DNA from: Candidatus Yonathbacteria bacterium
Lineage (GTDB): Bacteria > Patescibacteriota > Minisyncoccia > Phycocordibacterales > UBA1550
Assembly: GCA_003483855.1 (NCBI GenBank)
Contig: DMXP01000005.1
Location: 29,202 to 93,201 of the forward strand
Length of the DNA: 64,000 bases
Direction of reading: 5' to 3'
The notes beneath the pieces were generated by a model that made no database searches, was not told the DNA's origin, and saw only the letters and a list, made by a program, of their open reading frames with translations. Each line of letters opens with the position of its first letter. Within the stretch, counting starts at the first letter, position 1. Both the position numbers and the translations under genes were made by a program. Below, piece after piece: positions 42,416 to 57,807 of this stretch.

Positions 42416-42751
42416 TTACTGGAGCTGATGCCCATCTGGACAGAAGAGAATGATCTGATCCACAAAATTATCGAGGTCTGTAGGATTGCTTCCATACTCA
42501 ACCATTTCTTCTATCACCTCATCTAGATACGCAATGGTGAATGGTAGGAGCTCAAAATTAAACTCAACCACAAACTTTTTTCTTGAGGTAGAAAAGTTTT
42601 TAAAAAAATCCTTCTCAAAAACTGGGACTCGTGTGCCTTTTGTTTTCTCCTCCTCAATTACCAACTGCATTAATACTGAAAGCCGGTCTGACTCATTTGG
42701 TAAAAAAGAAAGCGTGGTCTTGCCATCACTCGGGTTAAATCTGACGTCCAT
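42416..42751 (-). CDS. hypothetical protein
   Basis: 111-aa ORF with no recognisable domain. Confidence 0.4.
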   Translation of the reverse strand: MDVRFNPSDGKTTLSFLPNESDRLSVLMQLVIEEEKTKGTRVPVFEKDFFKNFSTSRKKFVVEFNFELLPFTIAYLDEVIEEMVEYGSNPTDLDNFVDQIILFCPDGHQLQ

Positions 42752-42859
42752 ATCACACCTCCTTCATCTTCGCAAATTTAAGGAACAAAAAATGTGACCA
42801 GTGGCAACTACGTTTATTATAAAGCGATTAGAATATTTGAGCAAGGAGCCCGCCTCCGC

Positions 42860-43198
42860 CTTTCGATTCTCCTCGGAGTCACACAATAGCAAAAGATGTC
42901 CCGAGGCTCTCGGTCACGGGTTACTAATTAATTTTTGGATAGCCTCGTCGTGTACGACAGGTCTAAGACTAGCGTGTGGTCAACACGTAAGTAATTTTGC
43001 TAAATCAAAGTCACTAAGTCTACTCGTGTGTCGCGTTTCAATCGACACTACGCGACGCGATTTTGCAAAATCGACACTGCGTGGACGTAAGTGCTCGCGA
43101 CCCCAGAGTCCAAGATTAGGGCCAAGCCCCGAATTTGTTAATTCGAAATCTGCAGATTCGTCGTGGTTTTGCGTGCTCGCAAAACATCACTGCGCTTT
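42860..43198. repeat. mosaic noncoding repeats next to tRNA-Ala, including a 45-bp segment repeated at 57660-57704
   Basis: 43116-43160 ttagggccaagccccgaatttgttaattcgaaatctgcagattcg is near-identical to 57660-57704. An inverted partial copy of the tRNA-Ala T-arm (ttcgattctcctcgg) lies at 42866-42880. aatcgacact is duplicated. Confidence 0.45.
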
Positions 43199-43239
43199 CC
43201 ACAAACTAAAAACCTGCCGCAGGGCAGGTTTTTAGTTTG
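43199..43239 (-). terminator. long hairpin terminator immediately after tRNA-Ala
   Basis: ccacaaactaaaaacctgcc-gcag-ggcaggtttttagtttgtgg, a 20-bp stem with U-runs on both strands. Confidence 0.5.
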
Positions 43240-43313
43240 TGGACCCGAGGAGAATCGAACTCCTTACCTCCGGAGTGCAAAACCGGCGCTCTAGCCAGGT
43301 GAGCTACGGGCCC
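43240..43313 (-). tRNA. tRNA-Ala (anticodon TGC)
   Basis: Cloverleaf GGGCCCG-TA-GCTC...GAGC-G-CCGGT-TTTGCAC-TCCGG-AGGTA-AGGAG-TTCGATT-CTCCT-CGGGTCC-A. The G3:U70 identity pair is present. Confidence 0.9.
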
Positions 43314-44591: not shown

Positions 44592-44672
44592 GCCGGAATG
44601 GTGGAATGGTATACACGTGCGACTCAAAATCGCATGCCGCAAGGCTTGTGGGTTCAAGTCCCACTTCCGGCA
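44592..44672 (+). tRNA. tRNA-Leu (anticodon CAA)
   Basis: GCCGGAA-TG-GTG...CAC-G-TGCGA-CTCAAAA-TCGCA, a 13-nt variable arm, GTGGG-TTCAAGT-CCCAC-TTCCGGC-A. Confidence 0.9.
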
Positions 44673-44684
44673 CAAAGCGTAAAA

Positions 44685-44708
44685 AAACCTGCACTGCTGC
44701 AGGTTTTT
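44685..44708 (+). terminator. rho-independent terminator after tRNA-Leu(CAA)
   Basis: aaacctgca-ctgc-tgcaggttt followed by tt. Confidence 0.6.
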
Positions 44709-44930
44709 AGCTTTGTGCGGGCGGAGTGATGTTCCGCGACCACGCGGAACCGCGAGCCGGGGGCGGCAAGTACTTACGGCTATGAGAGCGTATCCGCTTG
44801 AAGAGACTTAGTAACTTATGCTCACACAGACTCAGTCGGGCTTTGCCCGTCCTTACCTTTCCCTTCGTGACCGACCCTCTCTCGGCACAAGCAAAGCGGG
44901 TGTGACCGAAGGTCGCACCCGCTTTTACTT
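44709..44930 (+). repeat. ~220-nt structured noncoding segment ending in a terminator; member of the tRNA-flanking mosaic repeat family
   Basis: Contains cgcgaccacgcggaacc, gcgagccggggg, gtacttacgg and gagacttagtaac, shared with 46531-46610 and 57300-57660. The 5-prime gctttgtgcgggcgg pairs with the 3-prime cggcacaagcaaagc. It ends with gcgggtgtgacc-gaag-gtcgcacccgc then tttt. Confidence 0.35.
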
Positions 44931-45625: not shown

Positions 45626-46528
45626 ATGGCACCAAAACAGAAAGATAGGATAATCGCTGTTGTCGGTCCAACAGCCTCAGGCAAGAGCGCTCTTGCTGTA
45701 GAGATTGCTCGCCTTGTTAACGGCGAGATTATTTCGGCTGATTCACGACAGGTTTACACTGGGCTTGATATCGGCACAGGCAAGGTCACGAAACGAGAGA
45801 TGCTTGGTGTGCCCCACCACATGCTTGATGTCATAAATCCTAAACGAACAATGTCGGTCGTACAGTACGAACGCCTCGCCACACGAGAAATAGAAGATAT
45901 TTTGAAGAGAGGAATAACCCCCATCATTTGCGGAGGCACGGGGCAATACGTTGACGCAGTACTTACCACTGCTTCATTCCCTGAGGTTCCACCAAATGCA
46001 AAACTCAGGAAAAAATTGGAGAAACTTTCGGCTGAAAAACTTTTTAAAAAATTGCAGAAAATGGATCCTGCGCGGGCAAAAACAATTGATGCAAAAAATC
46101 CACGACGGCTCATTCGCGCAATTGAAATTGCAGAAGTGCTCGGTAGTGTGCCATCGCGCGAGCCTGCGACCGAGCGCTATGACACTCTTTACATAGGACT
46201 CGCGCTTCCAAAAGAAGAACTGTCAGAACGCATCCACAAGCGCCTCGTGGCACGTATGCGCCAAGGCATACTAGCCGAAGCGAAGCGTTTGCACGAGAAA
46301 GGTCTCTCCTGGAAGCGCATGAAGGCACTTGGACTTGAGTATCGCTTCCTTGCGCAATTTTTGCAAAATAAAATCTCAAAAGAGGAATTGCTTGATTTGC
46401 TTGAAATTGCAATTCGTCAGTACTCAAAACGCCAGATAGTTTGGTTTAAGAGGAATGAGAAGATTAAGTGGTTTGAGCCAAGTGAGTCTAAAAAGGTTTT
46501 GTCAGTTGTAGTAAAATTTTTGAAATAG
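45626..46528 (+). CDS. miaA: tRNA dimethylallyltransferase
   Basis: IIAVVGPTASGKSALAVEIARLVNGEIISADSRQVYTGLDIGTGK. Confidence 0.9.
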   Translation: MAPKQKDRIIAVVGPTASGKSALAVEIARLVNGEIISADSRQVYTGLDIGTGKVTKREMLGVPHHMLDVINPKRTMSVVQYERLATREIEDILKRGITPIICGGTGQYVDAVLTTASFPEVPPNAKLRKKLEKLSAEKLFKKLQKMDPARAKTIDAKNPRRLIRAIEIAEVLGSVPSREPATERYDTLYIGLALPKEELSERIHKRLVARMRQGILAEAKRLHEKGLSWKRMKALGLEYRFLAQFLQNKISKEELLDLLEIAIRQYSKRQIVWFKRNEKIKWFEPSESKKVLSVVVKFLK

Positions 46529-46530
46529 AA

Positions 46531-46803
46531 GCGGGCCCACGAGTCCGCGGTCCCGAGTTACTAAGTATTTTTCCACACTTCGTGTTCAAAAATCCTAAGT
46601 GTTCGCGACCACGCCTCGGCGACCCAGTGAGTACACTGTGTGCTCCCGATTTCTTAGGTTGTACTCAACCTCTTGAAATCGCAGTGCCCTAGATTTATCG
46701 TGGCCCCGCCTGCGGTTTTCGAGTCCTCGTGGGCCTAGCAGTAACAACAAACCCCAAACACTGTCGTGTTTGGGGTTTGTTACTGCGGGCCCACGAGGAC
46801 TCG
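46531..46803. repeat. noncoding repeat region containing an 84-bp near-perfect palindrome (46720-46803) that incorporates the tRNA-Trp 3-prime end
   Basis: cgagtcctcgtgggcc-tagca-gtaacaacaaaccccaaacac-tgtc-gtgtttggggtttgttac-tgc-gggcccacgaggactcg. A third degenerate copy gcgggcccacgagtccgcgg lies at 46531-46550. ccgagttactaagtat and gttcgcgaccacgc are shared with other tRNA-flanking regions. Confidence 0.45.
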
Positions 46804-46856
46804 AACCTCGGTCTGCGCGTTTGGAGTGCGATATTCTACCACTGAACTATAGGCCC
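46786..46856 (-). tRNA. tRNA-Trp (anticodon CCA), with an unusually weak anticodon stem
   Basis: GGGCCTA-TA-GTTC-AGTGGTA-GAAT-A-TCGCA-CTCCAAA-CGCGC-AGAC-CGAGG-TTCGAGT-CCTCG-TGGGCCC-G. It sits directly downstream of rpmG, the classic rpmG-tRNA-Trp position. Only 3 Watson-Crick pairs in the anticodon stem. Confidence 0.6.
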
Positions 46857-47195: not shown

Positions 47196-47840
47196 TCATG
47201 CGCATTTATCAGAATACGTATCGATGTTTGCGCAAGCAATCATCTTTGCATCATACCATGACGTGTAAAGATATCCTGCTTCAAAAGGTTTGGTTCCTTT
47301 TTCAAAACCGTTTATGAGCTCTTTCACCTGATCAATAGTTGATATTCCTTCCATTTGAATACCATGCGCATATGAAGAACTAAAGTAGTCCCTGAGCTCG
47401 TCGTTACATTCGTAAAGTATCGATTCGTCCTCCTCTATGAGTGGTGCGATAAGACCTGCCAAAAAATGTTCTGGGGCTTTTTTCTTTCCAAATATTTGCT
47501 CAGCGAGCGACGCGTACACTGATGCAAGAATGTAACAATCTATTGCATGATTCAATATCTTGCGCTCCTCGTGCAGTGGCGCATATTCAACACGATTAAT
47601 TTCATACTCAACCTTACTGAATCCAAGTATATTTATGATACCATGGACACTCGTAGGTCTTCTGAATGAACCGTGACATATACACATATGATTTGTCATG
47701 CGCAAGAGTCTCACAACAAGGTAAGGTTGAAAGACCAAAAGTTTTGCAATGTCTCCAAACGAAGAATCCTTGTTTGCAAGCAAGTTAGAGAATTTCTTGA
47801 TGAACCCTTGTGTCACATACACCTTTTCAAATTCTTCCAT
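47196..47840 (-). CDS. HDOD-domain (HD-related output domain) signalling protein
   Basis: FGDIAKLLVFQPYLVVRLLRMTNHMCICHGSFRRPTSVHGIINILGFSKVEYEINRV fits the HDOD pattern. Start trimmed to MEEFEKVY. Confidence 0.65.
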   Translation of the reverse strand: MEEFEKVYVTQGFIKKFSNLLANKDSSFGDIAKLLVFQPYLVVRLLRMTNHMCICHGSFRRPTSVHGIINILGFSKVEYEINRVEYAPLHEERKILNHAIDCYILASVYASLAEQIFGKKKAPEHFLAGLIAPLIEEDESILYECNDELRDYFSSSYAHGIQMEGISTIDQVKELINGFEKGTKPFEAGYLYTSWYDAKMIACANIDTYSDKCA

Positions 47841-48042
47841 TCTACCCTCCTGTGTATTATTTTGTGATGTAAATGTACTGGTGCACATAATATCATAAAA
47901 TATGGGATTATGTCAAATAGCAATTTTTTAGAATTAAAAATCTAGTAGAACCTTTAACGGATTCATAATTTTGTACACCTGTAAATTAGCAAATTTTAAT
48001 CTTGGCAAAAGGATTCTCTTTTTCGAATCCTTCCCAACACTA

Positions 48043-48079: not shown

Positions 48080-48090
48080 CTAGGTTTTTG

Positions 48091-48173
48091 TGCGCCGGGA
48101 AAGATTCGAACTTTCGAAGACCGAAGTCAGGAGATTTACAGTCTCCCCTCGTTGACCACTTGAGTACCGACGC
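48091..48173 (-). tRNA. tRNA-Tyr (anticodon GTA)
   Basis: GCGTCGG...GGAGA-CTGTAAA-TCTCC, a long variable arm TGACTTCGGTC, TTCGA-AAGTTCGAATC, CCGGCGC-A. Confidence 0.88.
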
Positions 48174-57080: not shown

Positions 57081-57152
57081 GGCGTGGTAGCCAAGTGGTA
57101 AGGCAGTGGTTTGCAAAACCTCTACACGCGAGTTCGATTCTCGCCCACGCCT
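57081..57152 (+). tRNA. tRNA-Cys (anticodon GCA)
   Basis: GGCGTGG-TA-GCC...GGC-A-GTGGT-TTGCAAA-ACCTC-TACAC-GCGAG-TTCGATT-CTCGC-CCACGCC-T. The discriminator is U. Confidence 0.88.
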
Positions 57153-57418
57153 CAAAGAAAATTCTGTTAAGAATTTTCTTGGCGTGGGAGCAGGTAAACT
57201 GCTTTGCCTGCGTCGGGTCCTAAATTTCGCACAACTTTGTTGTGCGAAATCTTACGACATGATTTTTGAAGCGCAAAAATCAGAATCGAAGGGCGGAGCA
57301 TGTCGCTTGCGACAGCGAGCCGGGGTCGCGAACACTTTGTAGTTTTCAAGCGAAGCGAAGAAAAATACTTAGTGATTCGTGACCGAGAGCGCCCACGCCT
57401 CAAGAAACAATTAAATAC
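57153..57418 (+). repeat. hairpin-dense spacer between tRNA-Cys and tRNA-Leu carrying tRNA-flanking mosaic motifs
   Basis: gaaaattct-gtta-agaattttc (57161-57182), tttcgcacaac-ttt-gttgtgcgaaa (57226-57250), gcgagccggggtcgcgaacac, agcgaagcgaag and aaaaatacttagtgattcgtgacc are shared with 44709-44930, 46531-46610 and 57597-57704. Confidence 0.4.
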
Positions 57419-57499
57419 GTCCGGGTGGTGGAATGGTATACACAGGAGACTTAAAATTTCCCGCCGTAAGGCTTATGGGTTCGAGTCCCATCCCGGACA
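57419..57499 (+). tRNA. tRNA-Leu (anticodon TAA)
   Basis: GTCCGGG-TG-GTG...CAC-A-GGAGA-CTTAAAA-TTTCC, a 13-nt variable arm, ATGGG-TTCGAGT-CCCAT-CCCGGAC-A. Confidence 0.88.
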
Positions 57500-57720
57500 C
57501 AAAATTAACAAGCGGAAAGCGATAGCTTTTTGCGACTGTAATTTTGTAGTCCGGGATGGGACTCGAAAGCCGGAGGCGGGCACCTTGTGTAATCACAAGG
57601 TCGCTGAGGCGGGGTCGCGAGTACTTAGGAGCGAAGCGACTTAGTAACTCGGGCCAAGCTTAGGGCCAAGCCCCGAATTTGTTAATTCGAAATCTGCTGA
57701 TTCGTGACCGCGGACCATCC
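57500..57720 (+). repeat. post-tRNA-Leu noncoding repeats: inverted copy of the tRNA 3-prime end and the 45-bp segment shared with 43116-43160
   Basis: gtagtccgggatgggactcgaaagcc (57547-57572) is the reverse complement of the tRNA-Leu T-arm and acceptor. 57660-57704 ttagggccaagccccgaatttgttaattcgaaatctgctgattcg. Confidence 0.45.
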
Positions 57721-57807
57721 CTGTATTACCAAACAAGATTTGCCGAGCAAGCTAGTCCAATTGTAACAAACAAAAACACCCATAAGGGGTGTCTATGTTT
57801 ATATTTG

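Follow-up and report, generated by a model that had tools for sequence, protein, structure and literature searches.

The T-loop and the 3′ end of transfer RNA (tRNA) genes were reportedly described by Williams in 2002 as the classical crossover sublocations of tRNA-targeting integrases. Integrase islands and prophages, with their attachment (att) sites attL and attR, show a direct repeat of the tRNA 3′ part that begins at the T-loop or at the 3′ end, an intact gene and a displaced copy on the far side; they also use transfer-messenger RNA (tmRNA) genes and the 3′ ends of protein genes, and they accrete in tandem. Here, we describe an element in which these features recur. It lies next to the tRNA-Trp gene in a 64,000-nucleotide stretch of contig DMXP01000005.1 from Candidatus Yonathbacteria bacterium (the window, to which all coordinates refer) and is one copy of a multi-copy family of small (~150–350 bp) non-coding elements that is found across Paceibacteria downstream of gene 3′ ends. 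As at an att site, a direct repeat of the tRNA 3′ part flanks the insert at tRNA-Trp; the insert itself (~255 bp) is non-coding and contains no integrase. In contrast to integrase islands, the family members are all of this small size, carry neither an integrase nor any other gene, use one core for dozens of targets, include an inverted copy of the target and have a core that is conserved as a folded single strand. Folded single-strand sites with a fixed recombinase (IntI and XerCD) and a fixed partner (attI and dif) are known from integron attC and from the attP(+) of CTX phage. The element shares with them the topology site–loop–inverted site–cargo–site and the preservation of structure (bulges and mismatches) rather than of sequence, but its paired arms copy many host genes and no recombinase has been identified for it. 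Judged by this comparison, the likeness to integrase att sites and to folded-hairpin sites appears to be one of resemblance and not of membership.

Other described systems are similar in part. Repetitive extragenic palindromic sequences and their hairpin-forming doublets (REP/REPIN) and bacterial MITEs (miniature inverted-repeat transposable elements), too, are small, non-coding, multi-copy, rich in hairpins, patchy and non-autonomous, and they lie at gene 3′ ends or between convergent genes. A MITE has terminal inverted repeats of its own and a short target-site duplication whose length is fixed, whereas the complementary ends of the element are target-specific arms only (X′ and X2, defined below) and its duplicated flank ranges from 5 to 60 nt and is also present in inverted form; moreover, its core is kept class-wide and not within one species, and its orientation follows the upstream gene. 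Retron non-coding RNA (msr-msd) also has a helix formed by its two ends that closes around one short and one long hairpin. Unlike a retron, the element is present in many copies per genome and has a closing helix copied from the adjacent gene; no reverse transcriptase adjoins it, the neighbours of the Trp copy being miaA and rpmG, and none is present among the 25 most recurrent families of neighbouring genes. Rho-independent terminators resemble the central hairpin of the element, in which a GC-rich stem is often accompanied by a U-tract and the A-tract that matches it, but in the element the stem is lengthened by 5–48 nt of host-gene sequence, a CTGC loop and an internal loop are family-specific, and the hairpin is always linked with the core and the direct copy. 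Finally, the group I introns published for tRNA genes of this phylum lie in the anticodon loop at position 35/36, match group I models and self-splice (PMC13011429). Like the element, they have tRNA genes as hosts and consist of ~200 nt of structured RNA in which a guide-like segment complements exon sequence; the element differs in lying downstream of a complete tRNA and in matching no group I model.

The window locus is organized around a near-perfect palindrome of 88 nt (46718–46805). A preliminary description, made from the letters of the window, had noted a palindrome at 46720–46803, which is real and lies inside the longer one. The outer arms, 46718–46735 (TTCGAGTCCTCGTGGGCC) and 46788–46805, are 18 nt each and 100% complementary, and the right arm is the minus strand of tRNA-Trp(cca) from T54 in the T-loop to C71 in the acceptor stem, which agrees with its earlier assignment to the 3′ segment of this tRNA. 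Inside the outer arms is a hairpin (arms 46738–46761 and 46766–46786, loop TGTC) whose arms differ solely by a 3-nt CAA indel. By simple arithmetic, the chance expectation of an exact 18-nt inverted repeat in an 800-nt region is ~5e-6, and the repeat is therefore not due to chance. A third, direct copy of the tRNA end contains GCGGGCCCACGAG at 46531–46543, an exact 13-nt repeat of 46785–46797, and over 46531–46549 it is identical to the tRNA-Trp 3′ part at 16 of 19 positions; the degenerate copy previously suspected at 46531–46550 is thus genuine. The palindrome is the left edge of a ~255-bp element (46531–46785) and represents the X1–hairpin–X′ section of one family copy, the parts of which are as follows.

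46786–46856, minus strand: tRNA-Trp(cca), complete, CCA not encoded; found by ARAGORN and by the Rfam tRNA model
46786–46805, minus strand: X1 (TTCGAGTCCTCGTGGGCCCG), comprising T-loop, T-stem 3′ strand, acceptor 3′ strand and discriminator; palindrome right arm
46738–46786, minus strand: central hairpin H0, with arms of 21 and 24 nt and a 4-nt loop; inner stem CCCCAAACAC/GTGTTTGGGG, then UUUGUUGUU
46718–46735, minus strand: X′, which reads GGCCCACGAGGACTCGAA on that strand; inverted copy of the tRNA 3′ part, exact over 18 nt; palindrome left arm
46611–46717, minus strand: H1 (AACCGCAGGCGG ... GGGTCGCCGAGGCGT), conserved hairpin 1, with an enlarged variable insert in the Trp copy
46549–46610, minus strand: H2 (GGTCGCGAACACTTAGG ... 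ACTTAGTAACTCGGGACC), conserved hairpin 2, with the invariant ACUUAGU/ACUUAGU quasi-palindrome
46531–46549, minus strand: X2, decayed direct copy (16/19) that is exact over its last 13 nt (CTCGTGGGCCCGC) and lies against the stop codon of miaA

The order along the gene strand is the same throughout the family: gene 3′ end (X1), hairpin H0 (often terminator-like), inverted copy X′, core (H1 and H2) and direct copy X2. In the Trp copy, H0 looks terminator-like by eye, with an inner 10-bp stem followed by TTTGTTGTT, itself within a longer stem; a consensus terminator scan did not call it. X2 can pair with X′ over 10 bp. The ~205 nt at 46531–46737 fold far more stably than shuffled sequence (z = −5.9 and −5.6 on the two strands), and in the fold of the whole tRNA-Trp-plus-element transcript (z=−10.4) X1 pairs with X′ and the 5′ acceptor strand with X2. 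Covariance model (CM) R1 matches the Trp copy at 46545–46656 with 45.3 bits (E=1.3e-10).

A BLAST comparison of 46531–46737 with the window led to sister copies by tRNA-Cys and tRNA-Leu(taa), at ~57.3–57.7 kb. In all, a homologous element follows five of the window's nine tRNAs, in each case in the orientation of the tRNA and with X′ and X2 matching that same tRNA. The four further copies are listed here with their CM scores, together with two remnants.

57154–57403, plus strand: copy after tRNA-Cys (57081–57153), 92.9 bits; hairpin 57154–57180, X′ GGCGTGGGAG 57181–57190, core 57286–57388, X2 CGCCCACGCCTCAA 57390–57403 (exact 14-nt direct repeat of 57142–57155)
57501–57721, plus strand: copy after tRNA-Leu(taa) (57419–57500), 52.0 bits; X′ GTCCGGGATGGGACTCGAA 57549–57567 (exact 19-nt inverted copy of 57480–57498), core 57563–57660, decayed X2 ~57715–57721
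44670–44892, plus strand: copy after tRNA-Leu(caa) (44592–44673), type B (see below), 54.9 bits; hairpin with a CTGC loop whose base pairs GCACAAAGC (44670–44678) with GCTTTGTGC (44710–44718), core 44714–44827, X2 CGGCACAAGC 44883–44892
42897–43243, minus strand: copy after tRNA-Ala (43239–43313), 17.4 bits (E=0.006); 21-bp hairpin 43198–43243 that takes in the last 5 nt of the tRNA, large inserts in the core, X2 CCTCGGGACA 42897–42906
42845–42876, minus strand: truncated second unit beyond the tRNA-Ala copy, consisting of X′ (CCGAGGAGAATCGAA) and the start of hairpin 1 (AGGCGGAGGCGGGCTCC), then unrelated AT-rich sequence
48022–48040, minus strand: solo relic after tRNA-Tyr (48090–48173), found by reading only; a degenerate inverted T-loop/T-stem copy (GTGTTGGGAAGGATTCGAA) downstream of a hairpin, without a core

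To assess the structure of the core, 94 copies were aligned (alignment A2); a covariance model built from this alignment recovers all five window copies, the cores of which share the motifs ..CGSAG.., ..GAGNCGGGGTCGCGARYACTTAG.. and ..ACTTAGTRAYTCGTGAC. The consensus of H1 is RNC GSA G-YR-(AU bulge)-variable stem-YRC GA GNY, and its base, RNC/GNY, covaries (GCC/GGC, GAC/GUC, GGC/GCC, AGC/GCU and ACC/GGU). The consensus of H2 is GUCGCGA-R-Y-ACUUAG..variable..ACUUAGU-R′-A-Y′-UCGUGAC. The helix that its two invariant ACUUAGU strands form has a U.U at its centre; a single A bulges out, and a G.U pair is invariant. Across the 24-pair core structure, 96.4% of cells are paired compared with 81.2% in shuffles, a fraction to which none of 500 shuffles came up, and there are 350 double-change cells compared with 114. 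The covariation score of 0.424 (shuffled, 0.145) was likewise reached in none of 500 shuffles, and controls with a slid structure did not exceed 0.088. Because G.U pairs are frequent and one is invariant, the fold is assigned to the sense strand of the upstream gene. The 5′ (X′) and 3′ (X2) flanks are complementary from the junction outward (median −10.0 kcal/mol, against −6.6 kcal/mol for mismatched flank pairs; p=2e-10), and the folded strand is therefore a three-way junction.

The copies differ in how much of the target they include. In type A, the commonest among the tRNA and tmRNA copies, X2 begins at T-loop C56 (..GTGAC, then CGAWTC..) and X′ ends in TCGAA, the complement of T54–A58; X′ often contains a small inserted hairpin with an ACUGCUU loop exactly at the boundary of the acceptor stem and the T-stem. 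In type B, the copied part is only the last ~5 nt of the tRNA plus trailer, which form the base of a family-specific hairpin (..GCGTWAAGAAAA-stem-CTGC-stem-TTTTTAGC..). Such a CTGC-loop hairpin precedes 40% of cores and is found in 2% of background windows. Inverted copies of at least 9 nt accompany 40% of tRNAs with a core and 23% of those without, a difference that is weak and confounded because the set without a core holds core variants that the search pattern misses.

At least four other core variants were seen within the same outer architecture, i.e. a terminator-like hairpin, X′ ending in TCGAA and X2 starting at the T-loop; among them are ..AAAGGTGTACTG-NNN-CTGTAAG.. and ..TGCCCAGACCAAAG..GAGGGAGA. 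They lie downstream of tRNAs at L025, L034, L053, L065, L079, L157, L002, L108, L075, L010, L011, L049, L074 and L156 (L-numbers are labels of the loci or contigs compared). As core variants occur in mixed tandem arrays, the family is part of a modular superfamily.

The distribution of the core was assessed with the pattern TCGCGARYACTT-N(8-38)-ACTTAGTRA on contigs from one genome per species. It matched at least 120 loci; those listed are all in metagenome-assembled genomes of Patescibacteria type with the exception of one chance match in Vibrio. The record labels among the listed matches are of Paceibacteria/Parcubacteria (Yonath-, Kaiser-, Lloyd-, Nomura-, Campbell- and Wolfebacteria), along with many Saccharibacteria, one Gammaproteobacteria and some given only as 'bacterium'; the contigs nearest to the window are labelled Yonathbacteria. 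Among the matches listed, 78 of 123 cores have a tRNA within 600 nt upstream, on the same strand in 77 of the 78, and at least 27 anticodons serve as targets. Some of the remaining cores are too near the locus edge for an upstream gene to be visible, and many others follow the gene for tmRNA (..CCATCTCCACA), ftsZ (..DWGAVPAFLRRSKLK, then stop; the FtsZ identity is backed by Pfam), rplL (..TLK, then stop) or another small basic protein. In these non-tRNA hosts X′ and X2 are copied from the last codons and trailer of the gene concerned. No Rfam family matches the Trp, Cys or Leu copies, either at the gathering threshold or at E<=10: the only matches that pass are to tRNA, and the rest are sub-threshold hairpin matches to miRNA models. 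The literature search, which included a term search in the paper that reports 224 motifs, found no description of the element. The element appears to be undescribed, and it is common in Paceibacteria (candidate-phyla-radiation bacteria). The preliminary picture of the locus, correct in its repeats, was incomplete in that it contained neither the covarying two-hairpin core, nor the four further tRNA copies in the window, nor the class-wide family with its tmRNA and protein-gene members.

Comparison between relatives shows that occupancy varies. The closest relatives found, L121–L123, have a MiaA that is 78% identical, the same gene order, ~80–88% nucleotide identity and an identical tRNA-Trp 3′ end; they lack the element after tRNA-Trp and after tRNA-Leu(caa), and they carry two tandem units after tRNA-Ala. 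Absence of the palindrome from a relative with the same synteny had been proposed in advance as a sign of insertion, and the insert is indeed missing from these relatives. In L141 and L139, tRNA-Trp abuts miaA, and in L153 and L156 the element follows tRNA-Trp with direct repeats of 26 and 23 nt. Identical units stand in tandem at tRNA-Lys of L044, and truncated units and solo X′ relics also occur. The direct repeats reach 18–60 nt beyond the tRNA end in L064, L053 and at tRNA-Cys of L044, and their lengths are up to 37–60 nt in L064, L044 and L053. The nearest neighbour of a core has the same tRNA target in six of 60 cases (2.4 expected), and core similarity is higher within than between genomes (median 0.63 and 0.54, p=1.5e-4, from only 12 pairs): cores group by genome and not by target. 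Two loci on contig CAXRCZ010000007.1, L018 and L076, ~70 kb apart, are identical from the ftsZ end through the element but in opposite orientations, which reflects either a large inverted duplication or an assembly artefact.

The anatomy and copy number of the element, the covariation in its core, its presence or absence between relatives, the tandem arrays and the relics lead us to infer movement. Our reading, with a probability of roughly one half, is that the family is a mobile or integrative element of a non-autonomous kind, directed at the 3′ ends of genes and often at the T-loop. In this model, insertion would take place at gene 3′ ends, for most tRNA and tmRNA copies at T-loop position 55/56. 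The target gene would stay intact because the full 3′ end and the hairpin lie on the gene side, while the displaced copy decays on the far side. The flanking copies would, in the mechanism that we prefer, be made from, or matched to, the target on insertion; the folded sense strand, as RNA or single-stranded DNA, would form the three-way junction of X′/X, H1 and H2, and an enzyme encoded elsewhere in the genome would recognise it. The att-like nature proposed in the preliminary description holds in so far as inverted and direct copies of the tRNA end bracket a ~255-bp insert, and falls short in that no integrase adjoins the copies examined. We consider it unlikely that the junction, with H1, H2 and the target-derived X′ and X2 arms, is the scaffold of a guide-programmed insertion system. 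Such a system would have an enzyme, encoded elsewhere in Paceibacteria genomes, that reads the invariant ACUUAGU/ACUUAGU helix and the H1 internal loop, while the target-rewritten arms would direct insertion into the T-loops of tRNA and tmRNA or the 3′ ends of highly expressed genes, with the gene regenerated.

Several results weigh against mobility. No transposase, integrase or reverse transcriptase is among the 25 most recurrent families in a Pfam analysis of 146 open reading frames (ORFs) neighbouring the cores, which are housekeeping; the 61 ORFs of the window are housekeeping-like too (Pfam, 25 most recurrent families), and an enzyme that occurs singly may lie outside these two lists. Comparison of the core pattern with viral contigs found no free, circular or viral form, and there is no clean empty site, as the closest relative is too diverged (~80–88%) and has other DNA at the site. 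Given the enrichment of the CTGC loop, H0 is not simply a pre-existing terminator onto which the element folded back. How a mobile unit gains X′ and X2 for a new target is unexplained. Other evidence would fit selection in place. The core is conserved across the whole class. In L077 and L085 the ftsZ copies occupy the same site and have their downstream flank in common, and H1 differs between them by a compensatory change (GAC/GTC and ACC/GGT); in each, X′ follows the synonymous changes of its own ftsZ, whereas X2 does not. Among 67 tRNA copies, pairing of X1 with X′ is stronger than that of X2 with X′ (mean −17.2 and −12.7 kcal/mol; Wilcoxon p=1e-5; 48 copies favour the former and 16 the latter), and the X2.X′ value is no better than that of a foreign-tRNA control (−12.2 kcal/mol). 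Selection for the X1/X′ hairpin is one possible cause of this excess of X1.X′ pairing. Another is survivorship, in which the survivors have a decayed X2 because copies with intact direct repeats were lost by deletion. A host function explains these observations no less well than mobility does.

The main rival is accordingly a host-functional cis-acting RNA, possible although on the whole doubtful, in which the element would be a conserved 3′ trailer or 3′ untranslated region of highly expressed, translation-related genes (tRNA, tmRNA, rplL and ftsZ). Pairing of X′ with the gene's 3′ end, giving the longer hairpin, or with X2, closing the junction, would act as a switch or as a processing or stability signal; in the tRNA copies the X′/X2 helix would mimic the stacked acceptor and T-stems and might therefore be recognised by the CCA-adding enzyme, RNase P or RNase Z. 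The class-wide covarying core with its invariant loop and bulge nucleotides, the G.U pairs that place the fold on the transcribed sense strand, the compensatory change in the same-site ftsZ copies, the tracking of synonymous X1 changes by X′ and the better-kept X1.X′ pairing all favour this explanation. So does the extra hairpin at the acceptor/T-stem boundary in the X′ of many tRNA copies, which is tRNA-like, and so does the position of the ftsZ and rplL stop codons in the loop of the X1/X′ hairpin with no U-tract after it, as a result of which the core would belong to the mRNA. Against it stand the sporadic occupancy among close relatives, the tandem arrays, the truncated and solo relics, the decayed X2 and the failure of cores to follow their targets. 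In addition, most tRNA copies have a terminator-like hairpin and U-tract before the core, which would limit its transcription, and a closing helix requires no identity to the adjacent gene.

Two further explanations were considered. The element could descend, as a relic or a derivative, from a catalytic RNA (self-splicing and group I-like, or of another type) in the tRNA T-loop, with X′ as the internal guide that pairs by its 3′ half with the 5′ exon (T-loop) and by its 5′ half with the 3′ exon (X2). The contiguous pairing of X′ with the T-loop and X2, in the order of P1/P10, and the pairing of the 5′ acceptor strand with X2 in the tRNA-plus-element fold are in line with this idea. We nevertheless regard it as very improbable, and a group I intron proper was rejected: a complete tRNA without interruption lies upstream and many copies have a decayed X2, which makes splicing both unnecessary and unproductive; the Trp, Cys and Leu copies have no Intron_gpI or ribozyme match at E<=10; the element ends in ...GUGAC and not in G; its core has two hairpins only, without a P3–P9 architecture; and the published introns occupy a different tRNA site, in the anticodon loop. 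That the palindrome is just a bidirectional intrinsic terminator of the ordinary sort, placed between the convergent genes miaA and tRNA-Trp and with a stem that reaches into the tRNA by chance, has next to no probability, even though the inner hairpin lies between convergent genes and is flanked by A-rich and U-rich runs. The exact 18-nt extension into the tRNA is unexpected by chance, the consensus scan does not call the hairpin, and the same construction is present at four other tRNAs in the window and at more than 100 other loci, always with the core and the direct copy. This recurrence at other tRNAs with a conserved core bears out the initial view that the palindrome is more than a simple terminator and refutes a plain terminator as the full explanation, although H0 may still terminate transcription.

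The tRNA-Trp gene itself is sound. Its limits are 46785–46856 according to ARAGORN, which called it as Trp(cca) in a check that the preliminary description had suggested, and 46786–46856 according to the Rfam tRNA model, with a score of 61.5 bits (gathering score 29). It lies in the usual position after rpmG, as first proposed, and is the only tRNA-Trp gene within the 64-kb window; rpmG is upstream of it on the minus strand, and miaA on the plus strand ends at 46528 (stop codon 46526–46528). The Rfam alignment confirms that only three Watson–Crick pairs remain in the anticodon stem, U27.C43 and A31.C39 being non-standard, and the more distant relatives L130 and L142 have five. The anticodon arm (window 46815–46831) is identical in L121–L123. 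As the nearest relative keeps the same arm, the weak stem is a tolerated lineage trait unconnected with the palindrome, and with this and the normal score the doubt that had been raised over tRNA-Trp as a gene is not borne out. ARAGORN found no tmRNA in the window.

Other observations concern the surroundings of the copies. Among the listed families of the 61 window ORFs there are three type IV secretion system pilins (PF18895) and two Mrr-type restriction endonucleases, the remaining ones being housekeeping (ATP synthase, alanyl-tRNA synthetase, leucyl-tRNA synthetase, RpoB, ClpB-type AAA domains and others). A 111-aa ORF with no Pfam match (42416–42751, minus strand) directly follows the truncated unit beyond tRNA-Ala, and a homologous ORF starts at the same place in L121; a 230-aa protein between tRNA-Tyr and rpmG (47199–47888, minus strand) has a weak HDOD match (E=2.6e-4) below the Pfam cut-off. 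Between miaA and tRNA-Trp of L121 (L121:3897–4310), where the window has the element, there is a 95-aa ORF with no Pfam match and then a terminator-like hairpin; the stretches that follow tRNA genes seem to be turnover hotspots. Directly after tRNA-Trp of L142 (L142:3949–4266, minus strand) is a 99-aa GIY-YIG nuclease ORF (Pfam E=1.7e-12), located between 16-bp inverted repeats, CGCACACTAAGTCTCC and GGAGACTTAGTGTGCG, that hold the family motif ACTTAGTG; beyond them the tRNA end is repeated (GTGGGCCCGC). In L153 and L143, too, a GIY-YIG ORF adjoins a tRNA. There are only three such ORFs in all loci and none inside a core, and a link with the element is no more than a lead. A phage origin was likewise rejected, the single viral-contig match being a chance one inside a coding region. 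In the ftsZ copies (L077 and L085; L045, L018 and L083), the last ~30–45 nt of the gene pair with the downstream inverted copy, which mirrors the synonymous codons of each genome, and the stop codon lies in the hairpin loop; X2 is conserved between L077 and L085 and no longer encodes the conserved C-terminal peptide.

For practical purposes, pseudo tRNA 3′ halves and long palindromes of this kind can mislead annotation, the prediction of att sites and assembly. Although Paceibacteria have tiny genomes, over half of the tRNA genes in the window are followed by the element, and it recurs throughout the class. A role as a host RNA would make it a new structured RNA of wide occurrence, associated with the transcripts of tRNA, tmRNA and ribosomal-protein genes in a phylum about whose RNA processing little is known. 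Mobility would mean insertion at the T-loops of tRNAs and the 3′ ends of genes with no enzyme encoded next to the element, and one would then have to ask how the target is read and how it is rewritten in both orientations. Should the guide-programmed version of mobility hold, the family would represent a new nucleic-acid-guided mobile class, distinct from IS110 bridge RNAs, from the guide RNAs of TnpB/IscB (omegaRNAs) and from group II introns.

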